Virus record (IMG/VR): IMGVR_UViG_3300025174_000536
Span: 1-23,143 of that record
DNA length: 23,143 nt
DNA from: a virus
Reading direction: 5' to 3' (one strand)
Positions within the stretch are counted from its first letter, which is position 1. Each line of letters starts with the position of its first letter. This document shows, piece after piece, positions 1 to 19,085 of the stretch. Below the pieces are notes generated by a model. That model did not search any database and had not been told where the DNA came from. It saw only the letters and a program-made list of their open reading frames with translations. Position numbers and translations under genes: made by a program.

Positions 1-318
1 CATCCGAAGCAGTGTCTCATCCCGCATCTGGAAGGCTACCTTGTAGCGTTTCATCACTACGGAACGGGCCGCTTTCAATCCTTCGGGGCTCCAGATGGAG
101 GCCATGAACTCGATGTCGAAGTGCTGGCACCAGTCATTGAGTTCCGGCGCCCAGTCGTCGATGTAGCGCATTGCGCCCCACCGATCATTTCCGACTTTGG
201 GATGTCCCAGTTGGAACTTGGCGATATCAGCTCCCGCTAAGGATGCCTGCCGGATGAGTTCGAAAGCTAAGGATTTCGAACCCATGTGACAGGAGCCAAT
301 CTCAGCCACGAACAACAT
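1..318 (-). CDS. neuB: NeuB-family nonulosonic acid (N-acetylneuraminate-type) synthase, 5' part (runs off the window)
   Basis: Not in the ORF track; translated by hand from ATG at 318: MLFVAEIGSCHMGSKSLAFELIRQASLAGADIAKFQLGHP...WCQHFDIEFMASIWSPEGLKAARSVVMKRYKVAFQM. Matches the NeuB N-terminal pattern (AEIGxxHxG...A..AGAD..KFQ...GI/IEF.S...KxAS-like). Overlaps the neuA-like stop by 17 nt. Confidence 0.85.
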   Translation of the reverse strand, partial: MLFVAEIGSCHMGSKSLAFELIRQASLAGADIAKFQLGHPKVGNDRWGAMRYIDDWAPELNDWCQHFDIEFMASIWSPEGLKAARSVVMKRYKVAFQMRDETLLRM

Positions 319-1009
319 CGCGTTGCCTCAACAAGAGATCCACGAGCATCAAGTCTAAGCTGCTATCTACGTTCACGCCCTTTTCGGGAGGCATGAACCA
401 CGGACGTATCTCCTCGCTTCTTCCAATCAACACCCCCTCCAGAAGAGCGTTTCTGCGGACTACATATAGACTTCCGTTCCGTATGTAAACCTTTGGCCGG
501 AGGTCCTGTCTCTGCCCTCCTTCTGGTTCGGGCCAGACATCCACGAGATGGTCGGCAACGACCATTTTGATCCTCGCAGGATGGTGATCGTCCAGTTGGG
601 AAACCCCGCACACAACGTCGGCTCCTGTATGAACGAGTTTATCAATGGCCCCGTCAATGTCATCCACGGTCTTGAGGGGATTGGTTGCTCGGAGGTCGGC
701 GATGATGTCGTACTCACTGTGTTCTTCCTCCTCTGCCCAGCGCAGTGCGTGAAGCAGTCCATCTATCGTCGGAGATTTATCTCCTGCGAGATAATAAGGT
801 CGCTTGAGAGGTTCGGCGCCGTATTCCTTAGCTACCTGAAGTATCTCTTCGCTGTCGCTCGAAACCAGATAGCGGCTGATATAGCTGGACTTGAGTGCTT
901 CCTCGATAGTCCATGCAATGAGAGGTTTCCCCGCAACCATCGCGATGTTCTTGTGAGGGATGCCTTTTGAACCGCCTCTGGCCAAAGTTACACCCAGCGT
1001 CTTGGTCAA
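302..1009 (-). CDS. neuA: Acylneuraminate cytidylyltransferase (CMP-nonulosonic acid synthetase, NeuA family)
   Basis: ARGGSKGIPHKNI motif, GKPLIAWTIE, VSSDSEEI, TNPL, NGSLY, DSSLD. Start set at TTG 1009 (TTGA overlap with the upstream stop, GAGGAAG SD); the ORF-track start at 1090 lies inside the methyltransferase gene. Confidence 0.92.
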   Translation of the reverse strand: MTKTLGVTLARGGSKGIPHKNIAMVAGKPLIAWTIEEALKSSYISRYLVSSDSEEILQVAKEYGAEPLKRPYYLAGDKSPTIDGLLHALRWAEEEEHSEYDIIADLRATNPLKTVDDIDGAIDKLVHTGADVVCGVSQLDDHHPARIKMVVADHLVDVWPEPEGGQRQDLRPKVYIRNGSLYVVRRNALLEGVLIGRSEEIRPWFMPPEKGVNVDSSLDLMLVDLLLRQRDVVRG

Positions 1010-1587
1010 TTCTTCCTCGCAATCGCCACTAGGGGAGTTAGAGTACTTGTGTCGTCTTGGGGAACTTTCAGGGACCAGTCGTACAGCCACACTTGTTGGA
1101 AGACTTCTAAAAGTGCTTTGCGGAACTCACTTGCTTTCCACTCTCTCTCATGCAGTTCCTTCCAGCGTCTCAGATCAGCGTTGGCGTTCCTCGCTGTGAT
1201 GATGAGGTCTCCTCCGAGGTCAAGGTGGTCCCACACATTCTGGAGGGCGCGTCTCCAGTCATGGATGTGTTCGAGAGTTTCCACCATGACTGCGGCGGTG
1301 TACTTTCTATCAGAGTTGAACTTCGTGATATCCCCGGTCATCCAAGTCACGTTGGATAGTGGGAACATCGTCTTAGCGAAGGTCACTGCTCCTGGGTCAA
1401 CGTCTATGGCATGAACGAAACTGACGTTATGGGCATACAGGAGGACTCCTGCTCCGGTCCCGAATCCCACTTCTAGGACGTTCGGCTTTCCGCTCAATTT
1501 CTCTGCGATAGAGAGATAGAGGTCAAACTGCGGCGTCAAGAGGTACCGTAAGCGTCGCCACATAACCTCGTGGGCGGATTCGTTCAC
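1006..1587 (-). CDS. Class I SAM-dependent methyltransferase
   Basis: VLEVGFGTG motif I, AIDVD, GDIT, ETLEHI, LDLGGDLII; GTG start overlapping the upstream stop. Confidence 0.9.
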   Translation of the reverse strand: MNESAHEVMWRRLRYLLTPQFDLYLSIAEKLSGKPNVLEVGFGTGAGVLLYAHNVSFVHAIDVDPGAVTFAKTMFPLSNVTWMTGDITKFNSDRKYTAAVMVETLEHIHDWRRALQNVWDHLDLGGDLIITARNANADLRRWKELHEREWKASEFRKALLEVFQQVWLYDWSLKVPQDDTSTLTPLVAIARKN

Positions 1588-2198
1588 TTAACCTCTCCCA
1601 ACTCCCTCGCTGCGTTCTCTTGGAAGGACATATCCCCGAGCGTAGAAGAGTCAATTCTTGTCCATCCTGGTCTTGGTTCATAGGAGTGCATTCCTCCCCA
1701 AGGGGATAGCCACCACTCGAACTGAGCGGTATGAAGATTCCTCACACGGTCCATCTTGGCCCCGTCGAACCTGGCGCCTAACAACTCTGCCTGATGGAAA
1801 TCGGACTTTCTGAGGTCGCTCCCAATGAAGAGAGTATTCTTGGCGGTGATCCTTCTAAAAAGACACGCCTGGGCGACCGTTCTCAGAAAGATGGTTGCTT
1901 TCATGTAGGCCCCGGTGAAATCAGATCCGGTCATCTCGCAATCGGTGAAGTCAGCTTTATGGAGATCCGCACGGGAGAAGTCGCATCGAATGAACGTGCA
2001 GCCTCGGAAGTTCCCATTGGATAGGTTAGCTCCGCGGAGGTTGCTATTGGTAAAGTTTGCTCCTCGCAGATCGTGTCCTGAGAGGTCGGCTCCCTCCAAA
2101 TTCACTCCAACCAAGGAGCACTTGTAAGCTATCGAGGCGTTCAAGCCGTGGTCCAGATCCTTGAGAACCTTTAGCTTTCTAGGATGTACGAGACTCAT
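1584..2198 (-). CDS. Pentapeptide repeat protein 1 with ~45-aa C-terminal non-repeat domain
   Basis: Tandem A(D/N)LXX-type pentamers (NLEGA DLSGH DLRGA NFTNS NLRGA NLSNG...) over ~125 residues. Confidence 0.93.
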   Translation of the reverse strand: MSLVHPRKLKVLKDLDHGLNASIAYKCSLVGVNLEGADLSGHDLRGANFTNSNLRGANLSNGNFRGCTFIRCDFSRADLHKADFTDCEMTGSDFTGAYMKATIFLRTVAQACLFRRITAKNTLFIGSDLRKSDFHQAELLGARFDGAKMDRVRNLHTAQFEWWLSPWGGMHSYEPRPGWTRIDSSTLGDMSFQENAARELGEVK

Positions 2199-2335
2199 AG
2201 CGTCCAGTCCTCGTCATCGCTTACGAGTTGATGTACCCCATTCCCGGAAGCGATCAGGTACCAGATGGCATACCCGAGCATCCAGACAGGCCCTCCTAAG
2301 ACAAGCCCTAGAACAAAGGCCAGGAAGAGATTCAC
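2195..2335 (-). CDS. Small membrane protein (46 aa)
   Basis: Hand-translated: VNLFLAFVLGLVLGGPVWMLGYAIWYLIASGNGVHQLVSDDEDWTL; GTGA overlap upstream and ATGA overlap downstream; hydrophobic N-terminus, acidic tail. Confidence 0.7.
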   Translation of the reverse strand: MNLFLAFVLGLVLGGPVWMLGYAIWYLIASGNGVHQLVSDDEDWTL

Positions 2336-2427
2336 GGTCTCGTGTACCTAACCATGATGAGGTCAGCTACTACCACTAGCAGACCCAGCACCGCTATTGT
2401 CGCTAAAAGCCTCAGTATCTCGCTCAT
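2332..2427 (-). CDS. Small membrane peptide (31 aa)
   Basis: Hand-translated: MSEILRLLATIAVLGLLVVVADLIMVRYTRP; GAGGAAG SD directly upstream; single TM-like segment; overlaps the 148-aa gene by 65 nt. Confidence 0.6.
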   Translation of the reverse strand: MSEILRLLATIAVLGLLVVVADLIMVRYTRP

Positions 2428-2809
2428 CTTCCTCAAAAGGAGACTGTCCATCCATGATATCCACTGCTTGCTGGGCGTCCTTCTTCCCTCGCTCCTGGCG
2501 AGCTTCTTTCACTTCCTCGGGAGTGTAATCGGTTAGTTTTCCGTCCTCTTGAACGACATTCCCCTCGAGTGCCCTCTTGATGTCCATGTCGTTCCCGAAA
2601 GTTGGGACCTTGAACACCTTGACCTCTCCGGTTTGGGTGAGGTGTCCGTACTGGCCCGTCGCTTTCCAGGCGTCGTGCCAGCCCCACATCTCCTTCAATG
2701 CACCACGGACTTCCGTCAGTTCCCGTTGCTTGTCCTGTATCTGCTTCTTGAGTTGCATCTTCCTGAAATTGAGTTCATCAATACGGTTTTCAATACTGTC
2801 AAGATTCAT
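2363..2809 (-). CDS. Coiled-coil hypothetical protein, paralogue of the glycosyltransferase C-terminal domain
   Basis: N-terminal heptad pattern; GAGGAA SD; ATGA overlap with upstream gene; by-eye similarity to residues 255-373 of the 3362..4483 protein. Confidence 0.8.
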   Translation of the reverse strand: MNLDSIENRIDELNFRKMQLKKQIQDKQRELTEVRGALKEMWGWHDAWKATGQYGHLTQTGEVKVFKVPTFGNDMDIKRALEGNVVQEDGKLTDYTPEEVKEARQERGKKDAQQAVDIMDGQSPFEEDERDTEAFSDNSGAGSASGSS

Positions 2810-3393
2810 TTCCTCAGTGGGATCCTTCCTGCGTTCTCTGGAAACGAATACCCTCCCATGACGCTTCGCTCAAGACGGTAATAGCCCTCTCGGGGTTCGT
2901 AAATCACTCTTCCTCCTCCGATGGGGACGTACCACCAGAAGACCGCGTGATCGGCGTTTGAGATACCCTCCAAGTTAGCTCCGTTGAATCTCGAACCGAT
3001 GAAGTCGCACTGGAAGACATTGGCGCTTCTCAGGTCGGCGTCGAAGAATAGGGCGTTCTTCACTGTTGCTCGTCGCATGGTGACGTTCCACAATCGCGCT
3101 CGGGTGAAATCCGTCGCTCGGAGATAGGACATGCTCATATCCGCACCGGTGAAGTCTGCGTCTGTGCAGTCCGCTCTCAAAAGACAGGCCCTCGACAGAT
3201 CGGTCCGGATGAATTTCGCCCCTCTCAGAGAGGCCTCTGTCAAATCTGCGCCTCTGAGATTGGCGTTGCTCAAGTTGGCGCCGTCCAGACATTTCCCCCT
3301 CAGGTCTACTCTCTCCAGGTCTGCTCCAACCAGTGCGCAATTGAATATCAGCTCCCTGTAGTTACTTGGCCTTGTTAAAGATGTCGATATCAT
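2806..3393 (-). CDS. Pentapeptide repeat protein 2 with C-terminal domain shared with protein 1
   Basis: Tandem pentamers (DLERV DLRGK CLDGA NLSNA NLRGA DLTEA SLRGA...). Start codon less certain (weak SD). Confidence 0.92.
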   Translation of the reverse strand: MISTSLTRPSNYRELIFNCALVGADLERVDLRGKCLDGANLSNANLRGADLTEASLRGAKFIRTDLSRACLLRADCTDADFTGADMSMSYLRATDFTRARLWNVTMRRATVKNALFFDADLRSANVFQCDFIGSRFNGANLEGISNADHAVFWWYVPIGGGRVIYEPREGYYRLERSVMGGYSFPENAGRIPLRK

Positions 3394-4483
3394 CGACGAA
3401 CCCAGCAGCTTCTTTCCTCAGAATGCCCGACCTTGCTTCTCTGGCATCTGCCTCCGTCACATCAGCAAGGTTCATTCGATGCTCAATCATCTGCACCTTC
3501 TCTTCCTCTGTGGCGATGGGAAATTGCTCCTCCTGTCCTCCGGATTGAGGGGATTGCATCTGTTCCAGAAGCCACTTCTCATCGGCGATGACTGCGCTAA
3601 CTGCGATCAACTGCCGGTTGAGGAAGTCGGCGTTCTGCTCGGCCTGATTCTTCTGAGTCTTCAAATCAGCCTGTCTCTCCTCGAGCATCTTAATTCTCAA
3701 TTCAAGAGCTTTTGCGTCCACATCATTTCCTTTCCTGGCGAATTCGAAGAGGTGCCCTGCAAGTGCTCCCAATCTATCACCGGTGGATTTGTGGGTCTTG
3801 AGTCTCTCTGCGATGTCATGATTGAGCCATACCACAAGCGCGTGCCGGCTCTCGATAGAAGCATCGAGCCACAGTCTGTATCCAAGGATTCTAGCGAGAG
3901 TGAAGAAACGGAAATCACTCCCGAGAGAGCGACCATCACCAGTCGCTTCTGGGAGAGGACCAATCCCGAAAGGATTGTCGCCGGGTGGGAGCCGTTTGAG
4001 GACGGCTTCCACCACCCGGCGTTGTATGAGGACGCAGCCCATCCCGGAGATGGCGATCTCGTGCAGCCCACTTCGCGGAACCTCCAGCATCGGGGGGAAC
4101 GGCCATTTGCCGTCTCCAACAACCGAACAAACGCTGTGTATGTTCCTGGCGTTGCGGGCGTAGTAATGCCCGGTCACCATGTCTACGTCATGCGAACGCA
4201 GACGCTCCAGGATATCTGGGGGATGGAGCATGTCGAGGTCAAAGAGGGCAACTGCGTCGAGTTTCCCTTCCAGGAACTCTTCGCACGCCAAGGACCGCGC
4301 GACATCTCCTCTACCAGAGGCGCGTTCCTGTTTGTAATCGCCTGGCCGTATCTGGATCTCGTAGAACGTCCGTAACGACTTGACGTACTGCGTTTCTCCA
4401 GAGATGCCCGCGATATAGATCTTTGTGGCCTTCGGCCTAATGCGAGGCGCTGCCGAGGGTGGCTCGGGTGAAGCGGTGGCCAT
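3362..4483 (-). CDS. GT-A fold (GT2-like) glycosyltransferase with C-terminal coiled-coil domain
   Basis: VARSLACEEFL, DxD motif in LFDLDM, DMVTGHYYAR, GMGCVLIQRRV, GSDFRFF..AR.LGY.LWLD...H, a pattern typical of GT2-like enzymes; last ~120 aa charged and helical. Confidence 0.82.
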   Translation of the reverse strand: MATASPEPPSAAPRIRPKATKIYIAGISGETQYVKSLRTFYEIQIRPGDYKQERASGRGDVARSLACEEFLEGKLDAVALFDLDMLHPPDILERLRSHDVDMVTGHYYARNARNIHSVCSVVGDGKWPFPPMLEVPRSGLHEIAISGMGCVLIQRRVVEAVLKRLPPGDNPFGIGPLPEATGDGRSLGSDFRFFTLARILGYRLWLDASIESRHALVVWLNHDIAERLKTHKSTGDRLGALAGHLFEFARKGNDVDAKALELRIKMLEERQADLKTQKNQAEQNADFLNRQLIAVSAVIADEKWLLEQMQSPQSGGQEEQFPIATEEEKVQMIEHRMNLADVTEADAREARSGILRKEAAGFVDDIDIFNKAK

Positions 4484-4880
4484 ACCGCGCCGTCCCAGCT
4501 GCTGTCGAGATACAGAGAGCGAACCGGTATACGTCGGCGGTGGCTAACGCCAACCAGATGTCACCCTTGGTCAGGCCGGCGCTCGCCGGTGCAGTCGAAA
4601 GGATCGGAAGGCGTAGCCGCGCAAATGCGGTCTGACCGACGGTTCCCTTGCCGAGGATCACCCCAGATGCTCCTATCGCTCCGGGATAGGTCAAACTTCC
4701 GAGCGAACTGAAATAGGAAAGCTCTGCGTTCGCACTGTCCCGGAAGACGATGTAATCCCCGCTCATGCTGGCCGGCCCGTCGATGGTCAGGATATCCGTT
4801 GCGGCAGTCACGCCCTCCATGTTCGAATGCCCATAGAGCGGCACTGCCAAGCCTTTGTAGGTATCTGTTCCTGCTGGCAT
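4437..4880 (-). CDS. Putative virion (capsid decoration/fibre-like) protein
   Basis: Directly downstream of the major capsid gene; Ala/Gly/Thr/Ser-rich, beta-type composition; AAGGAG SD. Function is positional inference. Confidence 0.55.
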   Translation of the reverse strand: MPAGTDTYKGLAVPLYGHSNMEGVTAATDILTIDGPASMSGDYIVFRDSANAELSYFSSLGSLTYPGAIGASGVILGKGTVGQTAFARLRLPILSTAPASAGLTKGDIWLALATADVYRFALCISTAAGTARYGHRFTRATLGSASH

Positions 4881-4881
4881 G

Positions 4882-5001
4882 GTAAGGTACTCCTTACTAG
4901 GGCTTCGCCCACTAGGGCTTTAGATTAGGACGGCGGTCGCCCATTTCGATGCAGTAAGTAGCGATGTGATCCAGGTGGCTTTCGCCAGCCTACCGCGTCC
5001 T
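4882..5001 (-). promoter_or_regulatory. Structured intergenic RNA between major capsid gene and next gene
   Basis: Sense strand: AGGACGCGGT(5001-4992)/ACCGCCGTCCT(4937-4927) long-range stem; AGGCTGGC-GAAA-GCCACCT hairpin; 10-bp direct repeat ACTAGGGCTT (4896-4905, 4911-4920); GTAAGG-AGTA-CCTTAC hairpin covering the SD. Confidence 0.55.
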
Positions 5002-5008
5002 TTGTTTC

Positions 5009-6259
5009 TTAGGTCCATGCTTCCTGTGCGACGCTCACTTCCTCCCGCAGCAAGCGGTTCTCGGCGATCCGTCCATATCCGCCCCAGAATTTGAACCCGA
5101 GGGTCCAGAACTGGTCCAGGATGCCGTCACGCTTCGGGCCGACGATCTCCCCAAACTCACCCACCTCGGGTGCGTACAGTTTCAGCAGAGAGCCGGGGCC
5201 ACCGAACACGACCAGATGGACGCTATCTGCGTTCCGTACCGAGTTGGTCGCAGGGTGTGCGAACCGCAAGCCACCGTTCGGGCCTTGCCCGACGATGGTA
5301 GCTGTTGAACCAGTAAAACCGGTGATGCGCACGCGCTCGTTCTGAGGGTAGTGCGTATTGGCGGTTTCCTCGGTTCCGATGTTGAGCCACTGTCCCGCGG
5401 CTTCGGTCTGGTCCATGTGGGTATTCGCGGCTACTCTAAGTGAGGTCGCTAGCGGGTTCACCGCGGTGTTCAATGTAGTCGCCGTGATATCCACTGCGTC
5501 CAGCCCCGCGCCGTAGAGGATCTTCGCCCAACTGGAGACCAGGAGGCGGAACGGTCCCAATTCGCCGAGTTCCCAGTTGAGGTGGATACCAGCCTGCTGG
5601 TACTGTCCCACAGCTTGAACAGAACCATCCTGTCGGAGGTCAGCGAAGGCGAATGGGTCGATCATGGCAGACCATCGCCGTGCCTGTTGTCCACCGTCAG
5701 ACATCCCCTCAAACATCGGAGCCTTCAAGTCCCCCAACTGGTTGGCTGCGTTGGCGAACTTGGTCTCGGTGAGACGGTGAGAGGTGGTTCCCGCATCCAG
5801 GGATGCGCGCGCGGCGGTGCGGTTCACCAAAGTTCCTTGGGTAGCCGCGTCTCGCGCAAGCACATCGATGGTCTCGGCCGCGCCTTCTGCGACCGTCTTG
5901 ACCAGCTTCTCCATGTAGTCGTTCAGGAAGTTACGGATCTGGATCTGCTGGGAGGTCTGGATCGCCTCACCACGGCTGGTGGGCGTGATGGTCGCCACAG
6001 CATCCCGAAGTGCTTGCGGGGTGATGTCGGCGGTTTCAGAGATGGCGCTTGTACCAATTGCCATTTTGGAGATGAAGTTGGCCTGGACCGCTGACCCCCG
6101 GATGAGTTCGGCCATATCGCGGCCCATCGGGATCGCCAGCTGGTCGTAGTAGCGGGAGAAGTAGACCTCTTCCGCGTACTGGTCCAGGTATTGAGTGCGG
6201 GTGGAGTTGGAGAGTGCGACTGCACCAGCTCCACCCGCAGCACTGGTCTGGATAGGCAT
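5009..6259 (-). CDS. Major capsid protein (HK97 fold, N4-gp56-like)
   Basis: Follows the scaffold-like gene; motifs such as SAISETADIT, AMIDPFAFADL, GELGPFRLL and C-terminal DGILDQFWTLGFKFWGGYGRIAENRLLREE resemble N4-gp56-family capsid proteins. Confidence 0.85.
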   Translation of the reverse strand: MPIQTSAAGGAGAVALSNSTRTQYLDQYAEEVYFSRYYDQLAIPMGRDMAELIRGSAVQANFISKMAIGTSAISETADITPQALRDAVATITPTSRGEAIQTSQQIQIRNFLNDYMEKLVKTVAEGAAETIDVLARDAATQGTLVNRTAARASLDAGTTSHRLTETKFANAANQLGDLKAPMFEGMSDGGQQARRWSAMIDPFAFADLRQDGSVQAVGQYQQAGIHLNWELGELGPFRLLVSSWAKILYGAGLDAVDITATTLNTAVNPLATSLRVAANTHMDQTEAAGQWLNIGTEETANTHYPQNERVRITGFTGSTATIVGQGPNGGLRFAHPATNSVRNADSVHLVVFGGPGSLLKLYAPEVGEFGEIVGPKRDGILDQFWTLGFKFWGGYGRIAENRLLREEVSVAQEAWT

Positions 6260-6271
6260 TGGGGTTCTCCC

Positions 6272-6490
6272 TTATCTAACGATCAGGGTCTCCCGCAGCA
6301 TGGATGCGCGATGGCTATCGTACAGGTCGTGCTTTCGCAGGACACGCTCCGCGGCAATCATTTCCAACTTCGCCAGAGCCATGTCTATGTCACCGGGCTT
6401 GAAAGTGTGCGCAGACCACTCCCTCACAACCGAGTTCACTTCCTCGTCCGTGAGGTCATAGTTCGAGAGCGACACCTCAGCCCGTTTCAT
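6272..6490 (-). CDS. Small hypothetical protein (72 aa; possibly 81 aa from ATA at 6517)
   Basis: Fills the gap between scaffold and capsid genes in the operon direction; charged helical sequence. Confidence 0.7.
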   Translation of the reverse strand: MKRAEVSLSNYDLTDEEVNSVVREWSAHTFKPGDIDMALAKLEMIAAERVLRKHDLYDSHRASMLRETLIVR

Positions 6491-6513
6491 CAGCCAGTCG
6501 TTCAGGCGGGGGT

Positions 6514-7281
6514 CTATGCTCCCTCCTCGGGAGAGAACAATCTCCCAGGGAGAATCTCCCCACCAGTAATTCCAGCCATCTCACGCATCTTGCCGCGAAG
6601 TTCCCTTCGCTTTTTGAACGCCTCTTGGGTGTTCTGCCCTTGCAGTTTTCCAAGCTCGGCCGCCAAATCGTCGTAGCTTCTCGCGGTCGTGACCGCGGTT
6701 CCGGCTTCCGACACGGCTGCGGCCGCAGTCGCTGCGCCGGTTTGCTTGGTGATCTTTGTCGCTCGTTTCGTGGCAAAAAGATCCACGATGTCTGGCCAAT
6801 CGTCCGCAGTCACTTTCCCTGCGTACTGAGTGACCAAAGCGACGTAATCCGGATCATCAAATGCAATCCCAGCGCCTTGGAGATGGACTGCTGATTTCGC
6901 CTGTGCCGCCGCCCAGGCCGGGTCCTCGGGCGCTGTGCCAATAGCCCCAGAGGAGATCGCTGCAAGCTCCTGCCTCAGTTCGGAGATTTCCAGGTCGCCT
7001 TTGATCTTCCCCACGTCTCCGCCAGCGGCTTTGACCCAGGCGTAGATTTCATCGACCTTGGCGAGTCTCACGTCCTTAGCAGACTTGAAGCGGGCATCAA
7101 TCTTGTCGTCGATCTTGTCCAAGACGGACGCCTTCGACTCCAGGGATGCCAACCGTGCCTCAAGCGCGGCCACATCTGGCGTCGTCGAACCAGCGCCAGT
7201 CGAACTTGGAGTTTTCTCAGGAACGGGCGGTCCCTGAGTTGCCTCCGCCTCCAACCGGCCTTCGTTCTCGGTATCAGCCAT
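6514..7281 (-). CDS. Probable capsid scaffolding protein
   Basis: Upstream of the capsid gene; acidic/Pro-rich N-terminus, Ala-rich helical/coiled-coil body, basic C-terminal helix (AFKKRRELRGKMREM). Confidence 0.7.
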   Translation of the reverse strand: MADTENEGRLEAEATQGPPVPEKTPSSTGAGSTTPDVAALEARLASLESKASVLDKIDDKIDARFKSAKDVRLAKVDEIYAWVKAAGGDVGKIKGDLEISELRQELAAISSGAIGTAPEDPAWAAAQAKSAVHLQGAGIAFDDPDYVALVTQYAGKVTADDWPDIVDLFATKRATKITKQTGAATAAAAVSEAGTAVTTARSYDDLAAELGKLQGQNTQEAFKKRRELRGKMREMAGITGGEILPGRLFSPEEGA

Positions 7282-7293
7282 CTTACATCCTCT

Positions 7294-7322
7294 AAGATAT
7301 CATGAATGTTTGGTACACGCAA
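7294..7322 (-). promoter_or_regulatory. Sigma70-like promoter upstream of scaffold/capsid genes
   Basis: Minus strand TTGCGT-N17-TATCTT with TGn immediately before the -10 hexamer, inside the 47-bp intergenic gap. Confidence 0.55.
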
Positions 7323-7328
7323 CAATAC

Positions 7329-10300
7329 TCATTGCACGGCGTCCACCAAAGCCCGCCAATCTGGGAAACCCAGCCTTTCGGCCAGCGTTTCTAAGCGGTC
7401 AATCGCTGCGGGGGGCATCTGCTCTCCGCTTTGATAGTCGAGGAGAAGGTTCCAGAGCGAACCTCCCAAGGTTGATTGCCATTCTTGGGGGCTTCGCTGC
7501 TGTCTCTGGACAAATGGTGTGGGTTCACCGCCTCGAACAGCATCCAACCACAAACGGTACATCTGATCACCCATGATCTTACGGAGGTCTTCCAAAGCTT
7601 CTGGGGCTGGTTTTGCCTGTGGTCCAGCCCCAGGGGTGGCGTATTTGGCAATCTGCTCCGCGATCCAGACCTCTCGTTTGGCAGTTGGATCGGTGATTTC
7701 CATTTCCTCAACAGGTTCCATGCCTTCGCGGAAGATGGCAGGGGCAGCATCAGGAAGTAACAGAGCAGCTTTGGAAACTCGAATTTCGATGGCTGGTTCT
7801 TCTTGGCTCTTGAAAGCGCCGTATTGCTCCAACTGAGGATGGTCCTTCCAGTATTGTTTCGCTGCTTTGCTGTCGATATCCCTCAGTTGGTAATACACCT
7901 CGAAGTGATCCCAGAGGTCGTCCCCAAATAGTCTTGCGGCGGCCTCGTACATCTCACCTTTGTAGTATCCCCTGATCCTCTCGGCGCTGGTGTAGTACGC
8001 ACCCAAGAGAGGGGTCATTTGGACGATCTGCTGCTGCCAGTCTAGCGCCTCGTCAATCTGAGGGTGTTGCTTCAAGATAGCGTCCCCAATTTCAGGGCGG
8101 TCTGGATCTCTCGCACCGAAGTAGTAGTCAACCAGTTCCCAGATGTCTTCACCGAACTGCTTTTCCACCTGAGTCCGCATCTGGCCATAGAGAGATTGAG
8201 CCGCATTCCACTCTGCGGAGGTTGCACTATCAGGAACGTCCAGTAAAGCCCCTAAATCAAGGACGGCTCCCATGAACTTCAATCTCTCCGCCTCGGACAT
8301 CTTGGTGAAGTCGCCCTTGGATTCTCGGAAGGCTGAAATGGTCTCAGAAGTGATTCCCACTCTCTCGGCCATCTCGGAGGTCATCCCCGGAGGAATTCTA
8401 TCGAGGATGTTCCAGGCGAAGGCTTCATCTCTATCCAGACCGGACTTCTTCGCCATCAGTAGAGCATCCATGAAAGGATAGGCCGCTTCGAGATCAGACC
8501 ATGCCTTTCGATACTCGTCAGGGCTGTAATCGGGCTTCTTCAGCATTAGACCGAACATCTCGTTGTAGAAACGATCTATCTGTACATCTTCTTCGGTGCG
8601 CATTTTGAAACCTGTCCCCAGAAAGAAGGGGGCCGCTACAGCGAACAGATTGGGGGCTCGGATGTTGATAGCTCTTGCTCGGGCCTCATCCCAGATCGGC
8701 CCCTCTTGGTTGTAAGCCGCATCCACAATCTGCGCCGCGGGATAGTTCTCCTCATCAATCATCGCCCCGATCTGACGGGCTACTCTTGGTCTTTCCCACG
8801 GGTCCATCCCACCCCCGAAGTAGTTGACGAATGGATCTAGCTCAATCCCCAATCCTTGAGGGTCCATGAGGGCGGTAACGTCTCGGAAGATTCTGGTAGG
8901 GGAATAGAGTCTTCCAGCCCATCTCGCGGCGGCGTCTTCTTGTCCCTCGCTGTGGTACTTCAGTGCCAGAAGAAGTTGATATGGCAACCATGTGGAAGGA
9001 CCGAACTTCTGGATATCCTCCAGAGTTCTTCCCCACCAATCCAATCGTCTTCGGGGATCGGTGAAGTCCACTCCCGTTAGCCCATTGAGGGGATTCAAGG
9101 AGGCTTCCAGGTTGAACCAGATCGGAGCCTTAGTATCCAATCCTAAGAGATCGCTCACATTGAGGCTGTACTTCCACCAATCCGGTAAACCAGCATGTTC
9201 GACCTCAAGAGTGTGCCGGTAGCGGGCATAGTTTGCTACGAGGCTCGGATGCGCTAAAGCACGTTTCATCCAGCGTAGATAAGTCCTTGAATGCCAGAAC
9301 TGATAAGGATAGATGTAGGAGGCTACGAGATCGAGTCCTATCCGCTTCCCGTAGTCATGCAGGATGGCATCTCTTGTGGCTTGAGCGATTGCGATAGCTT
9401 TTGCTCTCACCTCATCCATCCGACCGCCGACTTGTTTCACCCAGCCCGCGAGTTGTCTCTCAACGTCCGGTCCCAAAGGAGGAACGCGACCTCCCCAGTT
9501 GTCCGAAAGTCCTTGTTTGAGGTTCTCGATAGCCCTTTCCGCCGCGGGTTGGCTTTCGTGGAAGAAGCGGTTTACAGACGGAAAGCCATCGTCGGCGCTT
9601 GAAACCAGGGGGACTTCTTGAGGACGACTAAGGACCTCATCGAACATCCGTGCCGTGAATTCTTCCGCTTCCATTCCCGCTTCGGCTGCGGCTGCTTTGG
9701 CAGCTTGATCCAGATCGGCGTCTCCGAGAATTCGGATAACGCCTTCTGGGTCGGCAGTTCGCAGTCTTTCCACAAACCCAGCAGCTTTTGTCGGTTCCGC
9801 CCCTTCCCCGAAGAGGGTCTGATACTGTCTCAGGAAACTGGACTGGAGCGTAGTTTGGGCAGAGACAGTTGCCACTCCGTCTACTAATTCCGCCTGATCC
9901 ATCATCCGCGCTCTAGTAAGTTGAGTTTCAGCAACCTGTCTTAATGGGGTGTTGGCGTCGATGCCCGCCATTCCCGCAAGTAGCTGACCTGAGTTGTCAT
10001 GCTGGGAAACGACGTACTCCCGCAATTGGATGTATCTCTGATTCTGGACCTCTCTATAGTTGTCCCAGAGGGCGTTCCTAAATGCGTCGGCGCTCAGATT
10101 TTCGGGGATGTCTCCTAACTGTCGTTCCCGCCACATCTTGCGCAGGAGGGGGTGGTCGGTTGGAAGATTTCTGGAGGCCTCGCTCATCCCCCAGGTCCCA
10201 GATGGAGGTTTCTTCCTCCCAAGGAAAACATCGGCCTGTCTGAAAGCATCGTCCGTTGCTCCGCGGACGTTTGCCCTTACAGGTTCGGTAATCCGCTTCA

Positions 10301-13064
10301 TGGCTTCTTCGGCCGCTTTGAGTCCGTCCTCTACAGTCCTTCCGTGTGTCTGAGCTTCTCGGATAAACGCTGCATTGATCTGAACGCGGGCCATCTCTCC
10401 GATTTCGTGACCGTACTCCTCAAACTGTCGTATCGTCTCTCTGGATTCGTGAACACGGCGCATGAAGATGTCTGCTTGTTCGTCGCTGAGGTTTTGACTT
10501 ATGGCATGGGCGGCTTCTTGGCCCGTCCTAGCAAACTCGTCGGTAGGAAGGACCATTGGGGGCTCGTTCGCCGCGCCCAACCCGACGTTGCTTCGCTCTC
10601 TCACCAGATCATCTAGCGCAGCGACGGCCTTTTCCTGAGACTCGGCCTCTCGGACTCTTTTTAGGGCTTCGTCGTATAGTCTGAGATCGCGAAGTTCTTG
10701 GACCTGCTCATCGGTTAGAAAGGATAGGTTGTCTACAACAGAGGCCCCGCCTCGCTCTCGCAGTTGGTTGACTGCGGCCTTAGCATTGCCCCAGTTGTCT
10801 CTTGAGACCGCTTGAAGAAAAGCCCGTTGTTCATCCGAGAGACCCACAACATTCTCCAAACCAGATAAAGCCCTGGAAGGTGTAAGAGCGTTTGCCATCG
10901 TGTCTCTTACGGATTTCTCTACGACGTGCGCAGCGACACCAGCCTCTTCTTGAGCGGCTTTCACGGTCCCGAATTTGCCGCTGAATCTTCGGAGGAGTCC
11001 TTCGGTCCCGATCTTGCCTCCTGGTACAGAGCCAGCGGCACCCAAACCCCGGATAGCAGCCTCGGAGACTGCTCCCAGCATAGTGTTGATATTGTCTAGA
11101 GCTTTGACAGGGGATACACCAAACAGGGCATTTGCGGCCACCTTGGGGCCGACATCTACTAGAGCAGGCATGAAATTCCCATAGCGGTTGTGCATCACGT
11201 AAATGGGATTTTCCAGGAAAAGAACTCTTTGGAGGTTCGCCGCGGGTTGGTAGACCCACTTTTGCATCGCTTCGTGGACGGGCTGGAGGGCCGTCTGAAG
11301 TTGAGATAGTTCCTGTCCAGCGATAGGGTTCTTTGCCAGGAAGGCGGCTCTCTCGGCTTCGTCCTCAATAGCCAGGTACTCATTCCGTAGCGCAGCGTGT
11401 TCTTTGACAGTTGGGAAGACTTCCTTGAGGGCATTGTCCAAATCCCTTCCCAGAAGGTCGGCCAACTTAGCGGGATCGCCTTCGGCTTGCTCGATGATCC
11501 GTCCGATACGTCCAGGGTTGAAGTTTCCCGCATCGTCAATAGAAAGAGTCCTGAGGAAGACGCCACTTTCCAATCCCGATTGTGAGAGAGCGACCTCGGG
11601 ACTGAGGCCGATTCGATTGAGAATCCCCAACCCCTCTTGCACCCTGGCTAGATCGGGATCGTTCAGGTAAGCAATTGCCTTAACGGCATCGAATAGTGAA
11701 TCGGGATCGTTTCCCGAACGTGCAATGAGGACCTGTAGGAAGTTGTTGGTTGTCTCGGAGCGAGTAGCTAACTTGCTGGGTGCGTCCAAATCCAATAAAC
11801 CGCGTTTAGCCGCCTCTTCTAGAATTCCGGTTCTTGCGGCTTGGGAACTCCTCTGAACTGCATCCAATAGAGTCAGATTTGCTTGAGAGATCGCGTTGTC
11901 TCCCACCGCGGCGCCGACGTTATCCAATGCTTTTGCAACGTCGGGGACCATCGTGGAAACTCTTCGAGTAGCCTCGGTTACTCTTGCGACCTTCGCCGCC
12001 CCGCTGGTCACCAAATCCAAAAGGTTCAGAGGGTCGTAGATAGCTTGTCCCAAAGCTTCGGCACCTGGGTTTTCCAGTTCCATCGCCAGGAGTCTAGGAT
12101 CCTCTCCAGCCTCTATCCTTCGGACAAACTCTTCTCTCAGTGCAGGATCTCTCCATGCAGAGTAGGCAATCCTCGCGGACTCTTGGTTAGCTCTTCGAAG
12201 TTCTGCGTACTCCTCGAACGTAGCTTGTCCTCGGAGAATGGCAAGACCTGTCTCTAACTGAACTGGAATAACAGCGAGCGGACCAAGTTTGCGGAACCAC
12301 TCATGCCATTCGGGGACAGGTTTTCCCTGTCTGGCATAGGAACGTCGGATAAGCTCGTCTGAGGCTAAGAGGGTAGGACCCACCGCCTCTCGTTCAACGG
12401 CGAGTGCAGGTTGCATAGCAGCTTGTAGGACGGTCTGAACGACGGCGCCTGAAAATCTAGCTAGTTGTCCGAAAACGGGAATCTGTTCACCAGCTTCCCA
12501 GGAGGTTTTAGCCAAACCCACTGCCGCTCCAAGAAGTGATTGGCCAAATTGGCCGAGAAGAGGACCTGCTTGGGATGTCTGGGTTTCTAAGTCCTGATGG
12601 CCAAGCGAAAAGAGCGCCGCTAGATTCTGTCTAACAGGTTCGAGTGCATCGAGGGCTTGCTGTGGGAGTTGCAGAGGCTCAGGACGATCCTTCTCGAAGA
12701 AGTTGTATCTCAATTGGCGCATGAAGCCCTGAAGACCGGGACCAAAATCCGGGGTTCCTAAAGACGTCCACCCCTTAGCTTCTTTTGGGAGAGGTTGTCC
12801 CCAGGGCCCATTCTTTTGGGTTGAGTATGTAGCGGCCCATTCCGCGGGGAGCCCCCGTTCATTAAGTACCGGCTGGGCTGGTGGAGGAGCACGAAGCTCA
12901 GCCATTGTCTCATTGACGGTATTGGCCCATTCGGTCGGTTCTTCAGCACCGAACAGAGACCGGTAGATGACCGTGCGAATAGGAGGTACAGCAGCGCCAA
13001 CAACCTTCGCCTTCTTGATTGCTTGTTCGAGAGTAGGACGTTCAGTAGATCGCTCTTCAGCCAA
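7329..13064 (-). CDS. Very large (1911 aa) probable internal virion / DNA ejection protein
   Basis: Single 5.7-kb ORF in the head operon; TTG start with GGAG SD; mostly alpha-helical composition, no Gly-X-Y or tape-measure repeats, no catalytic motif recognised by eye. Confidence 0.6.
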   Translation of the reverse strand: MAEERSTERPTLEQAIKKAKVVGAAVPPIRTVIYRSLFGAEEPTEWANTVNETMAELRAPPPAQPVLNERGLPAEWAATYSTQKNGPWGQPLPKEAKGWTSLGTPDFGPGLQGFMRQLRYNFFEKDRPEPLQLPQQALDALEPVRQNLAALFSLGHQDLETQTSQAGPLLGQFGQSLLGAAVGLAKTSWEAGEQIPVFGQLARFSGAVVQTVLQAAMQPALAVEREAVGPTLLASDELIRRSYARQGKPVPEWHEWFRKLGPLAVIPVQLETGLAILRGQATFEEYAELRRANQESARIAYSAWRDPALREEFVRRIEAGEDPRLLAMELENPGAEALGQAIYDPLNLLDLVTSGAAKVARVTEATRRVSTMVPDVAKALDNVGAAVGDNAISQANLTLLDAVQRSSQAARTGILEEAAKRGLLDLDAPSKLATRSETTNNFLQVLIARSGNDPDSLFDAVKAIAYLNDPDLARVQEGLGILNRIGLSPEVALSQSGLESGVFLRTLSIDDAGNFNPGRIGRIIEQAEGDPAKLADLLGRDLDNALKEVFPTVKEHAALRNEYLAIEDEAERAAFLAKNPIAGQELSQLQTALQPVHEAMQKWVYQPAANLQRVLFLENPIYVMHNRYGNFMPALVDVGPKVAANALFGVSPVKALDNINTMLGAVSEAAIRGLGAAGSVPGGKIGTEGLLRRFSGKFGTVKAAQEEAGVAAHVVEKSVRDTMANALTPSRALSGLENVVGLSDEQRAFLQAVSRDNWGNAKAAVNQLRERGGASVVDNLSFLTDEQVQELRDLRLYDEALKRVREAESQEKAVAALDDLVRERSNVGLGAANEPPMVLPTDEFARTGQEAAHAISQNLSDEQADIFMRRVHESRETIRQFEEYGHEIGEMARVQINAAFIREAQTHGRTVEDGLKAAEEAMKRITEPVRANVRGATDDAFRQADVFLGRKKPPSGTWGMSEASRNLPTDHPLLRKMWRERQLGDIPENLSADAFRNALWDNYREVQNQRYIQLREYVVSQHDNSGQLLAGMAGIDANTPLRQVAETQLTRARMMDQAELVDGVATVSAQTTLQSSFLRQYQTLFGEGAEPTKAAGFVERLRTADPEGVIRILGDADLDQAAKAAAAEAGMEAEEFTARMFDEVLSRPQEVPLVSSADDGFPSVNRFFHESQPAAERAIENLKQGLSDNWGGRVPPLGPDVERQLAGWVKQVGGRMDEVRAKAIAIAQATRDAILHDYGKRIGLDLVASYIYPYQFWHSRTYLRWMKRALAHPSLVANYARYRHTLEVEHAGLPDWWKYSLNVSDLLGLDTKAPIWFNLEASLNPLNGLTGVDFTDPRRRLDWWGRTLEDIQKFGPSTWLPYQLLLALKYHSEGQEDAAARWAGRLYSPTRIFRDVTALMDPQGLGIELDPFVNYFGGGMDPWERPRVARQIGAMIDEENYPAAQIVDAAYNQEGPIWDEARARAINIRAPNLFAVAAPFFLGTGFKMRTEEDVQIDRFYNEMFGLMLKKPDYSPDEYRKAWSDLEAAYPFMDALLMAKKSGLDRDEAFAWNILDRIPPGMTSEMAERVGITSETISAFRESKGDFTKMSEAERLKFMGAVLDLGALLDVPDSATSAEWNAAQSLYGQMRTQVEKQFGEDIWELVDYYFGARDPDRPEIGDAILKQHPQIDEALDWQQQIVQMTPLLGAYYTSAERIRGYYKGEMYEAAARLFGDDLWDHFEVYYQLRDIDSKAAKQYWKDHPQLEQYGAFKSQEEPAIEIRVSKAALLLPDAAPAIFREGMEPVEEMEITDPTAKREVWIAEQIAKYATPGAGPQAKPAPEALEDLRKIMGDQMYRLWLDAVRGGEPTPFVQRQQRSPQEWQSTLGGSLWNLLLDYQSGEQMPPAAIDRLETLAERLGFPDWRALVDAVQ

Positions 13065-13958
13065 TTAGATTCTCCAATTGACAAGCCCAAAGCCACCGGA
13101 AAACCTGCTTCCGCCGGATTGATTGGACCCAAAGCCGCCAAGTCTTATAGTTCCTCCACCGCCTCCACCTAGAGCTCCACCACCTCTACCTAGACCTCCA
13201 CCTGTTCCATTCCCAGCTGTCATAATGCCCTCAGGCTTGTACCACAGTCCAGTCCCGAGATTGATGTATCCCATACGCGTCAAGAGATCGGCTCCTGAAC
13301 CTGCCCCCGCTCTGGATGCGATGACATCAAAGACTCTCTCATTTGCAGTACGAGGGAGTTGCCCAAGATCGTAGAGACCGTGCTCGGTGAAAAATACGTT
13401 CGTAGCGAGTGCAGTATCGGGGGCATTGCGGGAAATTGTCGCAGATTGGAAGCGAGCTTGCTCGAGGGCGCGCTCGGGGTCCACTGAACGTATCCTATCG
13501 AGATATTGCAATGCTTGCGCAGTCGCTGGTGGAATAGGTCCGCCGCCCGCGGGTCCAGTCTGGACGACTGGCTGCGCCACTGTAGGAATAGCAGGCGTGG
13601 GACTGGGCGTGACTTGTCCCGGAATTGTTCCAATCGTTCCCACGGCTGAAGGGGTGGGTGTAGGACCGAAAACACCTACCTGACCAACGGCTGATGGGGT
13701 AGGTGTTACTCCATACACACCAGCGGTCTGACCCAACTGATACGGGGTGGGCGTCGGTGTAGGAAGGGGTGGGGTTGGGGTTAGTGTTGGCGTAGGAACA
13801 GGAGCTGGTGTAGGACCAAAGATACCCACCTGGCCGACCGCGGAAGGAACGGCTGGTGCAACAGGTTTGCCCTTAATCGTTTTCTTGAGTTTCTTAGCGA
13901 CTTTGGGTTTCTTCTGCGCTGAGATTGAGTCGCCCCCGCCGTTGTACAGTATTGGCAT
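13065..13958 (-). CDS. Low-complexity Pro/Thr- and Gly-rich putative virion protein
   Basis: Lys-rich N-terminus, PT repeats, repeated PSAVGQVG(I/V)FGPTP, Gly-rich C-terminus ending GLVNWRI; GAGGA SD. Confidence 0.75.
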   Translation of the reverse strand: MPILYNGGGDSISAQKKPKVAKKLKKTIKGKPVAPAVPSAVGQVGIFGPTPAPVPTPTLTPTPPLPTPTPTPYQLGQTAGVYGVTPTPSAVGQVGVFGPTPTPSAVGTIGTIPGQVTPSPTPAIPTVAQPVVQTGPAGGGPIPPATAQALQYLDRIRSVDPERALEQARFQSATISRNAPDTALATNVFFTEHGLYDLGQLPRTANERVFDVIASRAGAGSGADLLTRMGYINLGTGLWYKPEGIMTAGNGTGGGLGRGGGALGGGGGGTIRLGGFGSNQSGGSRFSGGFGLVNWRI

Positions 13959-14079
13959 CTCGTGTTCCTCTTGAACCGCGTCTCTGTTTCTTGAAATCCT
14001 CGATCAACCGTTCGTTCTCGATTTGAATTTCTAGTATGGCGATATCCAGATCGCGTTCGGTCAGGAAGTGATCAGACAC
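13894..14079 (-). CDS. Small hypothetical protein (61 aa)
   Basis: GTG at 14079 with GGAGG SD; VSDHFLTERDLDIAILEIQIENERLIEDFKKQRRG...; overlaps portal stop (8 nt) and the next gene (65 nt). Confidence 0.5.
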   Translation of the reverse strand: MSDHFLTERDLDIAILEIQIENERLIEDFKKQRRGSRGTRDANTVQRRGRLNLSAEETQSR

Positions 14080-17502: not shown

Positions 17503-17600
17503 GTTGGAGATAGTCTAGCATGGATTTTGGTAAAACGCACACGGAGGAGGGAACCCATGTCCTCGCCGTCGGAGTAGAGGGGAACGTGGTGGGGGCTCAC
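17466..17600 (-). CDS. Possible 44-aa hypothetical peptide
   Basis: VSPHHVPLYSDGEDMGSLLRVRFTKIHARLSPTWETPLPFPRNG; GTGA overlap with the upstream stop and ATGA overlap with the MTGFTDGEG ORF. Confidence 0.35.
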   Translation of the reverse strand: MSPHHVPLYSDGEDMGSLLRVRFTKIHARLSPTWETPLPFPRNG

Positions 17601-18217
17601 GCCTCCGCTTCGGTGTCTGTCTCTCGTACCACGCCTTCCACCACCTCACCCAGCAGACCTAGCTCTACCAACCTGCCAGCTGCCAACCCATCTAGGTGGA
17701 CGTTGACCTGGAGAGCTTGCACTGTCCCTGCCTTATCAGCTTGAAGGAAGTCTGTCGCTCTTCCCACGAACTCCGCTGCTCTCACACTATGGGACATCTC
17801 CGGTGACATCGCTGCTTCTGCCTGCTTCTCGACTACGAACCCCCAGGCTTCAGCTGGAAGTTTGGGTGACAAGGGAGAGAGTGATGCAGCAGCACGCATG
17901 AGACCAGCCTCTGCCTCTGCTTGTGCCAGTCGTTTGCGTTCGGCCTGCTTCTCCTCTTTCAGAATGTTCAGGCCCTGGGCCACCGTAGAGCGGGTTATCT
18001 CATGCGCTTGACCATTACCATTACCATTAGCCTTATGACCTGCTTTACTGCCCCTTGATAGAGCGGCCCTTATGGCTTCAGTAGCTTTAGGGTGGCGCTC
18101 TGCTAAGCCCCGATAGGCTTTACCCTTGCTATTCCCCTTTGCCCAACGCCTGTACTCTATGCCATCTGAGGCCCATATCTCATAGTCGCCTTCGGTTCTT
18201 AGGTGTTGATCTGGCAT
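17597..18217 (-). CDS. Candidate terminase small subunit
   Basis: First gene of the packaging operon, upstream of terL; basic N-terminus, central helical region, C-terminal QALQVNVHL beta-strand-like segment. Positional inference. Confidence 0.6.
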   Translation of the reverse strand: MPDQHLRTEGDYEIWASDGIEYRRWAKGNSKGKAYRGLAERHPKATEAIRAALSRGSKAGHKANGNGNGQAHEITRSTVAQGLNILKEEKQAERKRLAQAEAEAGLMRAAASLSPLSPKLPAEAWGFVVEKQAEAAMSPEMSHSVRAAEFVGRATDFLQADKAGTVQALQVNVHLDGLAAGRLVELGLLGEVVEGVVRETDTEAEA

Positions 18218-18223
18218 GCTCTT

Positions 18224-18232
18224 ATGGTAGCA
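18224..18232 (-). promoter_or_regulatory. Extended -10 promoter for a probable leaderless late transcript
   Basis: TG-C-TACCAT followed by exactly 6 nt and then the ATG at 18217; no SD and no consensus -35. Confidence 0.55.
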
Positions 18233-18305
18233 CAGGAATGGGTGCGCCGCACCGTTCTACCATTCCGCCAAAATACGAACGCCAGATTAGAGAACGCCCA
18301 AAAGC

Positions 18306-18334
18306 TTGACTTATAGTGTGCGATAGTGTACAGT
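18306..18334 (+). promoter_or_regulatory. Sigma70-like early promoter
   Basis: TTGACT-N17-TACAGT, followed by GAGGAG SD and ATG at 18356. Confidence 0.75.
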
Positions 18335-18355
18335 ATTCACAGAGAGGAGAACACC

Positions 18356-18577
18356 ATGAACCGTCTTCCCTGGAATGAAAAGGTCCCAATGCTCAGTATC
18401 AATCCGCAGGCCGCCAATCCTAGTGACATTGCTCGCCTAGCCTCAGAACTTATGGAGGCCCGTCACACTCTTGACCGCATCGCAGGGCACGCGAGCGCAG
18501 GAGCAATGTCCTCATTCCTGGGTGCGCATACGAAATGCGAGATTGTGCGAGACTTGGCACGAAAGGCCCTTGCCTAG
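18356..18577 (+). CDS. Hypothetical early protein (73 aa)
   Basis: GAGGAG SD before ATG 18356 (the ORF-track start at 18326 overlaps the promoter). Confidence 0.75.
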
Positions 18578-18586
18578 CTCGGCCCT

Positions 18587-19076: not shown

Positions 19077-19085
19077 CTCAGTAGG

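Follow-up and report, generated by a model that had tools for sequence, protein, structure and literature searches.

Why should the head operon of a phage run on, past its capsid gene, into genes for a sialic-acid-type sugar? The question is raised by IMG/VR record IMGVR_UViG_3300025174_000536, a viral contig of 23,143 bp that was analysed in its entirety (hereafter the window; CheckV completeness, 44%). Behind the gene for the major capsid protein (MCP), a chain of genes that we call the island encodes a small protein (u147), a GT-A glycosyltransferase (GT), an S-adenosylmethionine (SAM) methyltransferase, a NeuA-type synthetase of cytidine monophosphate (CMP)-activated sugars and a NeuB-family synthase. 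A first-pass annotation of the sequence had proposed that the phage makes and activates its own, possibly methylated, nonulosonate late in infection and coats its particle with it. We found that the constant partner of the capsid gene is the GT, whereas NeuA and NeuB are optional cargo. The best reading of the island is a virion glycosylation system acting on a protein of the particle, to which we give an even chance, and a nonulosonate coat on the particle is plausible.

The evidence for a constant core came from comparison with relatives. Scans with a GT alignment yielded 28 metagenome loci and 10 viral loci, the latter including three close relatives (L003-L005). Wherever a locus reached 700 bp or more upstream of the GT, the MCP gene was present there (16/16), and MCP or u147 was found in 21 of the 23 loci with at least 300 bp. 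A pentapeptide-repeat protein (PRP) followed the GT in 9-10 of the 16 loci with downstream DNA. The linkage of neuA and neuB to capsid genes, to which the first-pass annotation had pointed, held only in some lineages. G002, a closed genome of 45.9 kb (99% complete; ends overlapping by 146 nt with one mismatch), has an island of GT and methyltransferase only, and no NeuB was found anywhere in its complete sequence. The G001 island consists of GT, PRP and two large unknown proteins, and that of G003 of GT, PRP, an FkbM methyltransferase, NeuA, NeuB and, after a contig break, a methyltransferase and a GH10 protein. In L040 a short GT is followed by a coiled-coil protein, PRP, methyltransferase, NeuA, two unknowns, a short NeuB and a 2-hydroxyacid dehydrogenase. 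The closest relative, L031 (MCP 70% identical), carries GT, PRP, a coiled-coil protein of the u148 type, a membrane peptide, a second PRP, and then mini-Maf (a small Maf-like protein), methyltransferase, mini-Maf, methyltransferase, NeuA, FkbM, short NeuB, mini-Maf and 2-hydroxyacid dehydrogenase. Because the methyltransferase accompanies the GT also in islands that lack NeuA and NeuB, it more likely acts on the product of the GT than on a nonulosonate; the methylated nonulosonate suggested earlier was not indicated, and a methyltransferase acting on nonulosonate was rejected on this co-occurrence with the GT alone.

The nearest deposited phage, MW202608 (a 41.8-kb circular podovirus from Manatee Spring; MCP 48.5% identical), shares with the window the order terminase, portal, giant protein, scaffold and MCP. 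After its MCP gene come a decoration gene, a 164-aa open reading frame (ORF) and then neck and tail genes, without sugar genes. Homologues of its 299-aa and 882-aa neck/tail genes stand after the island in L031, L040 and G002. Since phage structural genes thus lie on both sides, the island was inserted into the structural module at one fixed place and is not host DNA.

The GT-A assignment of the 373-aa protein was borne out by structure and not by any curated family: the protein had no Pfam, NCBIfam or functional PHROG match, tblastn against 50,697 phage records returned no match, and GT2/Anp1 families were reached weakly and by distant relatives only. An AlphaFold2 model built on 19 homologues (mean predicted local distance difference test (pLDDT) score, 81) showed a GT-A domain followed by long helices. 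Its best Foldseek match was A197 of Sulfolobus turreted icosahedral virus (STIV; PDB 2c0n; E 1.5e-9; template modelling score 0.64 on the target), and the next neighbours were COLGALT1, Mimivirus R699, LH3, ppGalNAcT and POMGNT1, with GlfT2, KfiA and SpsA also found. The model had 182 PDB matches at E<=0.001, mainly GT-A enzymes among the matches listed, and its BFVD matches were phage GT-A proteins. A profile of the GT family also found A197 by sequence, across the DxD and G-x-G...IKR segment; the DxD residues D82/D84 (DLDM) are invariant in the 19 homologues and align to 'lDeD' of A197. A full hidden Markov model search returned 62 clusters at a threshold of E<=1e-30 and, when this was relaxed to E<=1e-3, 5688. 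Among the distant relatives are fusions with FkbM or class I methyltransferases and with GT1/GT4 domains. The SAM methyltransferase assignment was likewise confirmed by three Pfam families (Table 1); the best match in the structure database was NodS (3ofj; E 2.5e-6), so that the protein is NodS-like at best. By gene order, GT and methyltransferase genes are located within the virion structural operon.

A particle protein is favoured as the acceptor because of the invariant MCP-u147-GT triad, the overlap of the u147 and GT genes, and the likeness of the GT to viral and protein-directed GT-A enzymes. By its gene position u147 is a candidate decoration protein, occupying the place of the 'head decoration protein' of MW202608. 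Homology between these two proteins was considered and rejected, as none was found on comparison. No match to u147 was found in Pfam, PHROG, NCBIfam or PDB, with either the single sequence or a profile, and its Atlas model was of low confidence (pLDDT 0.56) with weak likeness to trimeric fibre-type proteins and was not used as evidence. Homologues in relatives have conserved ends and a hypervariable middle, together with a near-invariant Thr/Ser-x-Pro motif that reads TTAPTT in most of them and STAPAS in the window. In the loci with a short GT, u147 had been scored as missing by BLAST; the one that was translated, L040, carries a 77-aa mini-u147 retaining both conserved ends. Given its restriction to island-bearing phages, its variable middle between conserved ends and its Thr/Ser-x-Pro motif, we infer that u147 would be the best candidate for the glycan acceptor, and otherwise the capsid protein.

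The two sugar genes were then compared with characterised enzymes. NeuA was assigned (PF02348, 66.5 bits against a gathering cut-off of 22.6) and matched solved CMP-Neu5Ac synthetases over its full length; in the alignment to the Vibrio cholerae enzyme 6ifd, a CMP-Neu5Ac synthetase, residues 7-231 are covered (E 2.5e-28) and the ARGGSKG-P-KN loop is preserved. The NeuB call stood for the fragment present in the window (PF03102, 30.9 against 22.1 bits), but the enzyme proved to be a short form without the SAF domain. Its full-length counterpart in another assembly, P0074, is 217 aa long and 99% identical to the fragment; residues 3-211 align to 6ncs and comprise the TIM barrel only of NeuB/PseI/SpsE. 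P0074 retains the AE-G-H, KFQ, SxH and EKH motifs, including the two His positions that serve as metal ligands in the canonical Neisseria meningitidis NeuB, and its alignments stop near residue 260-265 of the 349-aa enzymes, before the SAF domain. The short forms of L031 and L040 measure 219 and 222 aa, against about 330-350 aa for canonical enzymes, and the related proteins of similar size (about 200-265 aa) number at least 175. As the catalytic motifs are kept throughout a family of this size, sequence comparison indicates that the short NeuB is a distinct class and not a broken gene.

The first-pass annotation had warned that the CMP-sugar transferase might lie outside the window, and indeed none was found within it, while islands of relatives contain candidates. 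These mini-Maf genes (three in L031, two in L026) encode proteins of 174-226 aa. The L031 proteins themselves matched PF01973 (MptE/Maf) below the gathering cut-off (25.9 against 34.6), and most of their homologues carry PF01973. A mini-Maf profile matched the sialyltransferases of the GT42 type Cst-II and Cst-I (E ~4e-4), with the GNGPSL motif aligned together with the position of His188, the catalytic base of Cst-II. The AlphaFold2 model (pLDDT 94) had as top fold match the Magnetospirillum Maf 5mu5 (E 1e-4), followed by the MptE kinase and Cst-II. The occurrence of NeuB, NeuA and mini-Maf together in L031 is consistent with a nonulosonic-type cap. A D-2-hydroxyacid (phosphoglycerate-type) dehydrogenase was observed as the last island gene in L031 (16294-17211) and L040 (11653-12417), adjoining a mini-Maf or the short NeuB. 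Its role might be to furnish a substituent (glyceroyl or lactyl); alternatively, it might be part of a route to ulosonic acids that has yet to be recognised.

The mechanism that we propose is as follows. Late in infection, the GT-A enzyme would take a nucleoside diphosphate sugar of the host and O-glycosylate a particle protein, with the Thr/Ser-Pro motif of u147 as first choice, and the methyltransferase would methylate the glycan so made. The short NeuB would condense phosphoenolpyruvate with a host-supplied precursor sugar into a 3-deoxy-2-ulosonic (nonulosonic-type) acid, which NeuA would activate with CMP and a mini-Maf/GT42-like transferase, its gene possibly in the unread DNA left of the window, would attach. 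The outcome would be a capsid sugar coat that varies between strains. Such chemistry should be cytoplasmic with a soluble acceptor, since island proteins of at least 100 aa showed no membrane helix (maximum KD19 <1.6) and the annotated genes of the window and the annotated relatives included no flippase, polymerase or ligase. A fuller picture joins all parts: a capsid decorated by u147 and bearing an A197-like GT glycan that is methylated and, in some strains, closed by a nonulosonic-type cap (minimal NeuB, NeuA and mini-Maf), with coiled-coil/PRP accessories and a hypervariable island. In that picture, variability like that of an O-antigen locus would imply selection on the phage's own surface. 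As a whole we regard it as possible and on balance doubtful.

Several results weigh against virion glycosylation with a nonulosonic cap. Lipids, polysaccharides and DNA are further acceptors used by GT-A enzymes, and u147 is without a recognisable fold or family. On the PseF equivalog TIGR03584, NeuA scored 115 bits, short of the cut-off of 205.7 for equivalog-level sugar specificity; the L031 NeuB likewise reached 85 bits against 399.65 for NeuB_NnaB and 77 bits against 340.25 for PseI. The SAF domain that the short NeuB lacks contributes to the active site of canonical NeuB. None of the precursor enzymes NeuC, PseB/C/H/G or LegB/C/H/G is encoded. The mini-Maf profile found no member in the six frames of the window, the DNA left of position 1 being unread, and L040 has NeuA, NeuB and the dehydrogenase without a detectable mini-Maf. 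Finally, the proposed model assigns no function to the PRPs or to the small membrane peptide.

The arrangement of the island is given in Table 1. The chain first annotated (capsid, small gene, GT-A, methyltransferase, NeuA, NeuB) is real, but four of its ten genes had been omitted: two PRPs, a 148-aa coiled-coil protein (u148) and a 46-aa hydrophobic ORF. Neighbouring island genes overlap by 4-47 nt, with two spacers as the exceptions, a 128-nt one that separates MCP from u147 and a short one ahead of the 46-aa ORF. The earlier statement that no terminator is visible was upheld, as terminator-like sites were not commoner than in shuffles (8 vs 5.9 ± 2.9). Folding of the MCP-u147 spacer was slightly above shuffles (z -2.1), without a T-tract, and the fold test found no structure in the u148-PRP2 spacer, which contains the 46-aa ORF.

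Table 1 Features of the window, listed from the capsid gene through the island and followed by the remaining regions (SD, Shine-Dalgarno sequence)
Feature	Position	Strand	Remarks
Major capsid protein (MCP), 416 aa	5009..6259	-	phrog_1357 major head protein, E 2.5e-11; anchors the island on its upstream side
u147, small conserved protein	4437..4880	-	strong SD (AAGGAG) ahead of ATG
GT-A glycosyltransferase, 373 aa	3362..4483	-	start overlaps u147 by 47 nt; GT-A domain ~residues 20-235, C-terminal coiled-coil domain ~235-373
PRP1, pentapeptide-repeat protein, 195 aa	2806..3393	-	PF00805 91.6 bits; non-repeat C-terminal tail conserved
u148, coiled-coil protein, 148 aa	2363..2809	-	
46-aa hydrophobic ORF	2195..2335	-	stop overlaps PRP2 start (ATGA)
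PRP2, pentapeptide-repeat protein, 204 aa	1584..2198	-	PF00805 101.3 bits, PF13599 99.8 bits
Class I SAM methyltransferase, 193 aa	1006..1587	-	PF13489, PF13649, PF08241 over cut-offs
NeuA-type CMP-nonulosonate synthetase, 235 aa	302..1009	-	TTG start overlaps methyltransferase stop; GAGGA SD
Short NeuB-family synthase, first 106 codons	1..318	-	PF03102 30.9 bits; cut at contig end
1911-aa ORF	7329-13064	-	between portal-proximal gene and scaffold gene; no Pfam or PHROG match
Divergent block of small genes	17520-23143	+	
Function-less PHROG family	18654-19076	+	in divergent block
Function-less PHROG family	21017-22099	+	in divergent block
HNH endonuclease	22603-23076	+	PF13392; in divergent block

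PRP1 and PRP2 consist of tandem A(D/N)LXX repeats above the PF00805 cut-off and miss all Qnr/MfpA/HetL equivalog cut-offs; PRP2 is 65% identical to its L031 homologue. Both end in a conserved non-repeat tail (W-x3-P-x-GG-x3-Y-x-P-x-PG ... SF-x-ENAAR), common to the homologues of relatives, which may be a docking element. The pairing of coiled coil and PRP occurs twice, once as the GT-coiled-coil fusion with PRP1 and once as free u148 with PRP2. The GT C-terminus and u148 share an EAR...VD motif with weak similarity (BLASTP E 0.05), and this likeness was kept as a lead because relatives L037, L038, L040 and L046 have a short GT (243-248 aa) with a separate u148-like ORF. A complex prediction for GT and PRP1 scored 0.21. 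The 46-aa ORF, placed between u148 and PRP2, has one predicted membrane helix and an acidic SDDE-W tail and is the sole membrane-type product of the island; its counterpart in L031 (60 aa, 10427-10609) holds the same position.

Gene calls and family searches showed that positions 17299-1 form one minus-strand operon, in the order large terminase (phrog_38, E 5e-55), 613-aa portal homologue, 297-aa protein, 1911-aa protein, scaffold-like protein, MCP and island. Beyond position 1 the DNA runs on, public contigs adding 0.8-1.6 kb, and the window ends within NeuB. The 1911-aa ORF recurs at this place, with a length of 1828-2156 aa, in podovirus MW202608 as well as in every relative, and its product may be an internal or ejected virion protein. 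No tRNA gene was detected in the window, and no tyrosine integrase (PF00589) in the window or in two near-complete relatives. The source is an uncultured groundwater podovirus-like phage, and its lifestyle is probably lytic. Near-identical DNA was present in 19 sequencing runs of groundwater, soil and sediment dating from 2015-2016, blastn of window positions 1-8000 against phage records gave no match, and scans of viral contigs with the single MCP and NeuA proteins gave none either. Logan contigs from four independent runs extend from MCP through NeuB at even depth with every junction bridged, and the GC content of the island (0.53) lies within that of the rest of the contig (0.51-0.56; MCP region, 0.59-0.61). 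At positions 5005-5039, where the MCP gene stops and the spacer to u147 starts, nine substitutions in 35 nt were common to all four runs between identical flanks, a small patch of recombination or variation. In three lineages the assembly stops within the island, in NeuB in the window and G003 and in the methyltransferase in G002, and this suggests that strain microdiversity is concentrated there. Among the post-island genes of G003 (L020 11793-12737) is a GH10 (xylanase-type) glycoside hydrolase, and L040 encodes a 556-aa protein resembling pectate lyase (13787-15457); the two are probably tail depolymerases and hint at hosts coated with polysaccharide.

Four other explanations were weighed against virion glycosylation. 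The glycosylation may be real and directed late in infection at a host surface structure or protein, such as flagellin, pilin, S-layer, lipopolysaccharide (LPS) or a capsule precursor, for instance to keep progeny off debris or to exclude competing phages. The fold and profile likeness of mini-Maf to Maf and GT42 would suit such a target, as flagellin is the usual substrate of Maf enzymes and lipooligosaccharide is sialylated by GT42 enzymes; so would the conserved 46-aa membrane peptide within the island, and NeuA and NeuB without precursor enzymes would fit the boosting of a host pathway. However, the enzymes have no membrane helix, machinery of the undecaprenyl phosphate, flippase or ligase kind is absent, and the GT is tied to MCP and u147 at every locus and not to lysogeny genes. 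Known seroconversion genes are expressed from prophages, whereas the two near-complete relatives have no tyrosine integrase. We consider a host target unlikely.

It is likewise unlikely that the post-capsid site is a moron hot-spot for unrelated cargo. In that case GT and methyltransferase would modify a particle protein, the PRPs would be DNA-mimic anti-defence or gyrase-directed factors, and NeuA and the short NeuB would either serve as auxiliary metabolic genes without a link to the virion or be decayed remnants. The different cargo of every relative (GT and methyltransferase; GT, PRP and two large unknowns; GT, PRP, FkbM, NeuA and NeuB) speaks for this, as do the assembly breaks within the island in three lineages, the resemblance of the PRPs to Qnr/MfpA-type proteins and the truncation of NeuB relative to canonical enzymes. 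Against it, wherever a function can be recognised in the cargo it concerns sugars (GT, methyltransferases of three kinds, NeuA, NeuB, mini-Maf and dehydrogenase), the genes overlap as though translationally coupled, a PRP follows the GT in most loci, and the short NeuB belongs to a family that keeps its catalytic motifs.

Glycosylation of the phage's own DNA, a base hypermodification against restriction, appears very improbable. Phage GT-A enzymes can glycosylate DNA (bioRxiv 10.1101/2023.12.21.572611), and one distant GT relative gave a sub-threshold score (19.7 bits) on PF20691, the TET-associated glycosyltransferase family. No hydroxymethylase, TET, DpdA or kinase-type base-modification gene was found in the window or annotated relatives, however, the island lies inside the head operon beside MCP, and the relatives of mini-Maf and GT42 act on proteins and glycans. 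We know of no CMP-nonulosonate adducts of DNA. That the sugar genes are host LPS or capsule DNA at a prophage boundary, or a chimeric assembly, was allowed for by the first-pass annotation and might be suspected from a window that stops within NeuB with its own left flank unseen, but is effectively excluded by the MW202608-like neck/tail genes after the island in relatives, the uniform depth of the contigs spanning MCP to NeuB in four runs, and the matching GC content.

Phage particles are usually regarded as bare protein, and to our knowledge glycosylation of the virion has been demonstrated in no phages other than a few mycobacteriophages, in which it alters antibody recognition. If virion glycosylation is the function of the island, phages would diversify their own surface chemistry as bacteria do their O-antigens. 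Such diversification might affect how phages adsorb to particles and biofilms, how they fare against grazing or enzymatic decay in aquifers, and how therapeutic phages are recognised by the immune system. The minimal NeuB (217 aa) and Maf (~175-226 aa) could serve as models for enzymology and as parts for glyco-engineering, u147 and the GT would make a simple two-gene system, and in the fuller picture the coiled-coil/PRP pairs would represent a new accessory of protein glycosylation.

Comparison with known systems places the island among several of them. STIV A197 is, like the window GT, a small viral GT-A protein and its best structural and sequence-profile match, and the capsid protein of STIV is glycosylated; it differs in belonging to an archaeal virus, in its 17% identity and in having no coiled-coil C-terminal domain, and as far as we know A197 does not adjoin a u147-like gene. 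Bacterial NeuB/NeuA, PseI/PseF and LegI/LegF pathways share with the window genes an end-to-end alignment of NeuA and the TIM-barrel motifs of NeuB, but they have a full NeuB with SAF, whereas the island has a SAF-less NeuB, no precursor genes and, in relatives, a 2-hydroxyacid dehydrogenase accompanying NeuA and NeuB. The mini-Maf proteins of relatives carry the GNGPSL nucleotide-sugar motif and a His aligned to His188 of Campylobacter jejuni Cst-II, and Maf 5mu5 is their top fold match; at 174-226 aa they represent the catalytic core only of a Maf of about 630 aa. Seroconverting prophage modules (Gtr/Oac) depend on membrane transferases or a flippase and on a lysogeny module, whereas island proteins of at least 100 aa have no membrane helix and no PF00589 integrase was detected in the window or in two near-complete relatives. 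A literature search returned no paper linking phage particles or capsids with nonulosonic acids or Maf-type enzymes.

Giant viruses such as PBCV-1 and Mimivirus (R699 and collagen-type GTs) possess autonomous glycosylation machinery (PMC9614988). They resemble the proposed system in the virus-encoded cytoplasmic glycosylation of capsid-associated proteins, independent of host endoplasmic reticulum and membrane, and Mimivirus R699 and a PBCV-1 protein are among the structural neighbours of the window GT; eukaryotic hosts, other sugars and large gene sets set them apart. In mycobacteriophages, the head operon of Corndog (cluster O) contains O-methyltransferase and GT genes (PMC4351075), and capsid and tail-tube proteins carry glycans (Freeman et al. 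2023, Cell Host Microbe, as reported in PMC12619734 and PMC11256854). Che8, Corndog and Myrna thus combine, as here, phage GTs and an O-methyltransferase in a virion structural operon with soluble cytoplasmic enzymes, and their glycans sit on capsid and tail-tube subunits, whereas for the window phage a virion glycan is a prediction. Unlike it, they are actinobacteriophage siphoviruses with GT genes between portal and protease or elsewhere, they have no NeuA/NeuB, Maf-like or pentapeptide-repeat genes, and their GTs show no sequence relationship to the window GT detectable by tblastn across the 50,697 phage records. The island most likely decorates a protein of the phage's own particle, a kind of glycosylation known from a few mycobacteriophages but not known with sialic-acid-type sugar genes. 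What is new in the present lineage is an A197-like GT tied to u147, pentapeptide-repeat partners, and an architecture of constant core plus variable cargo.

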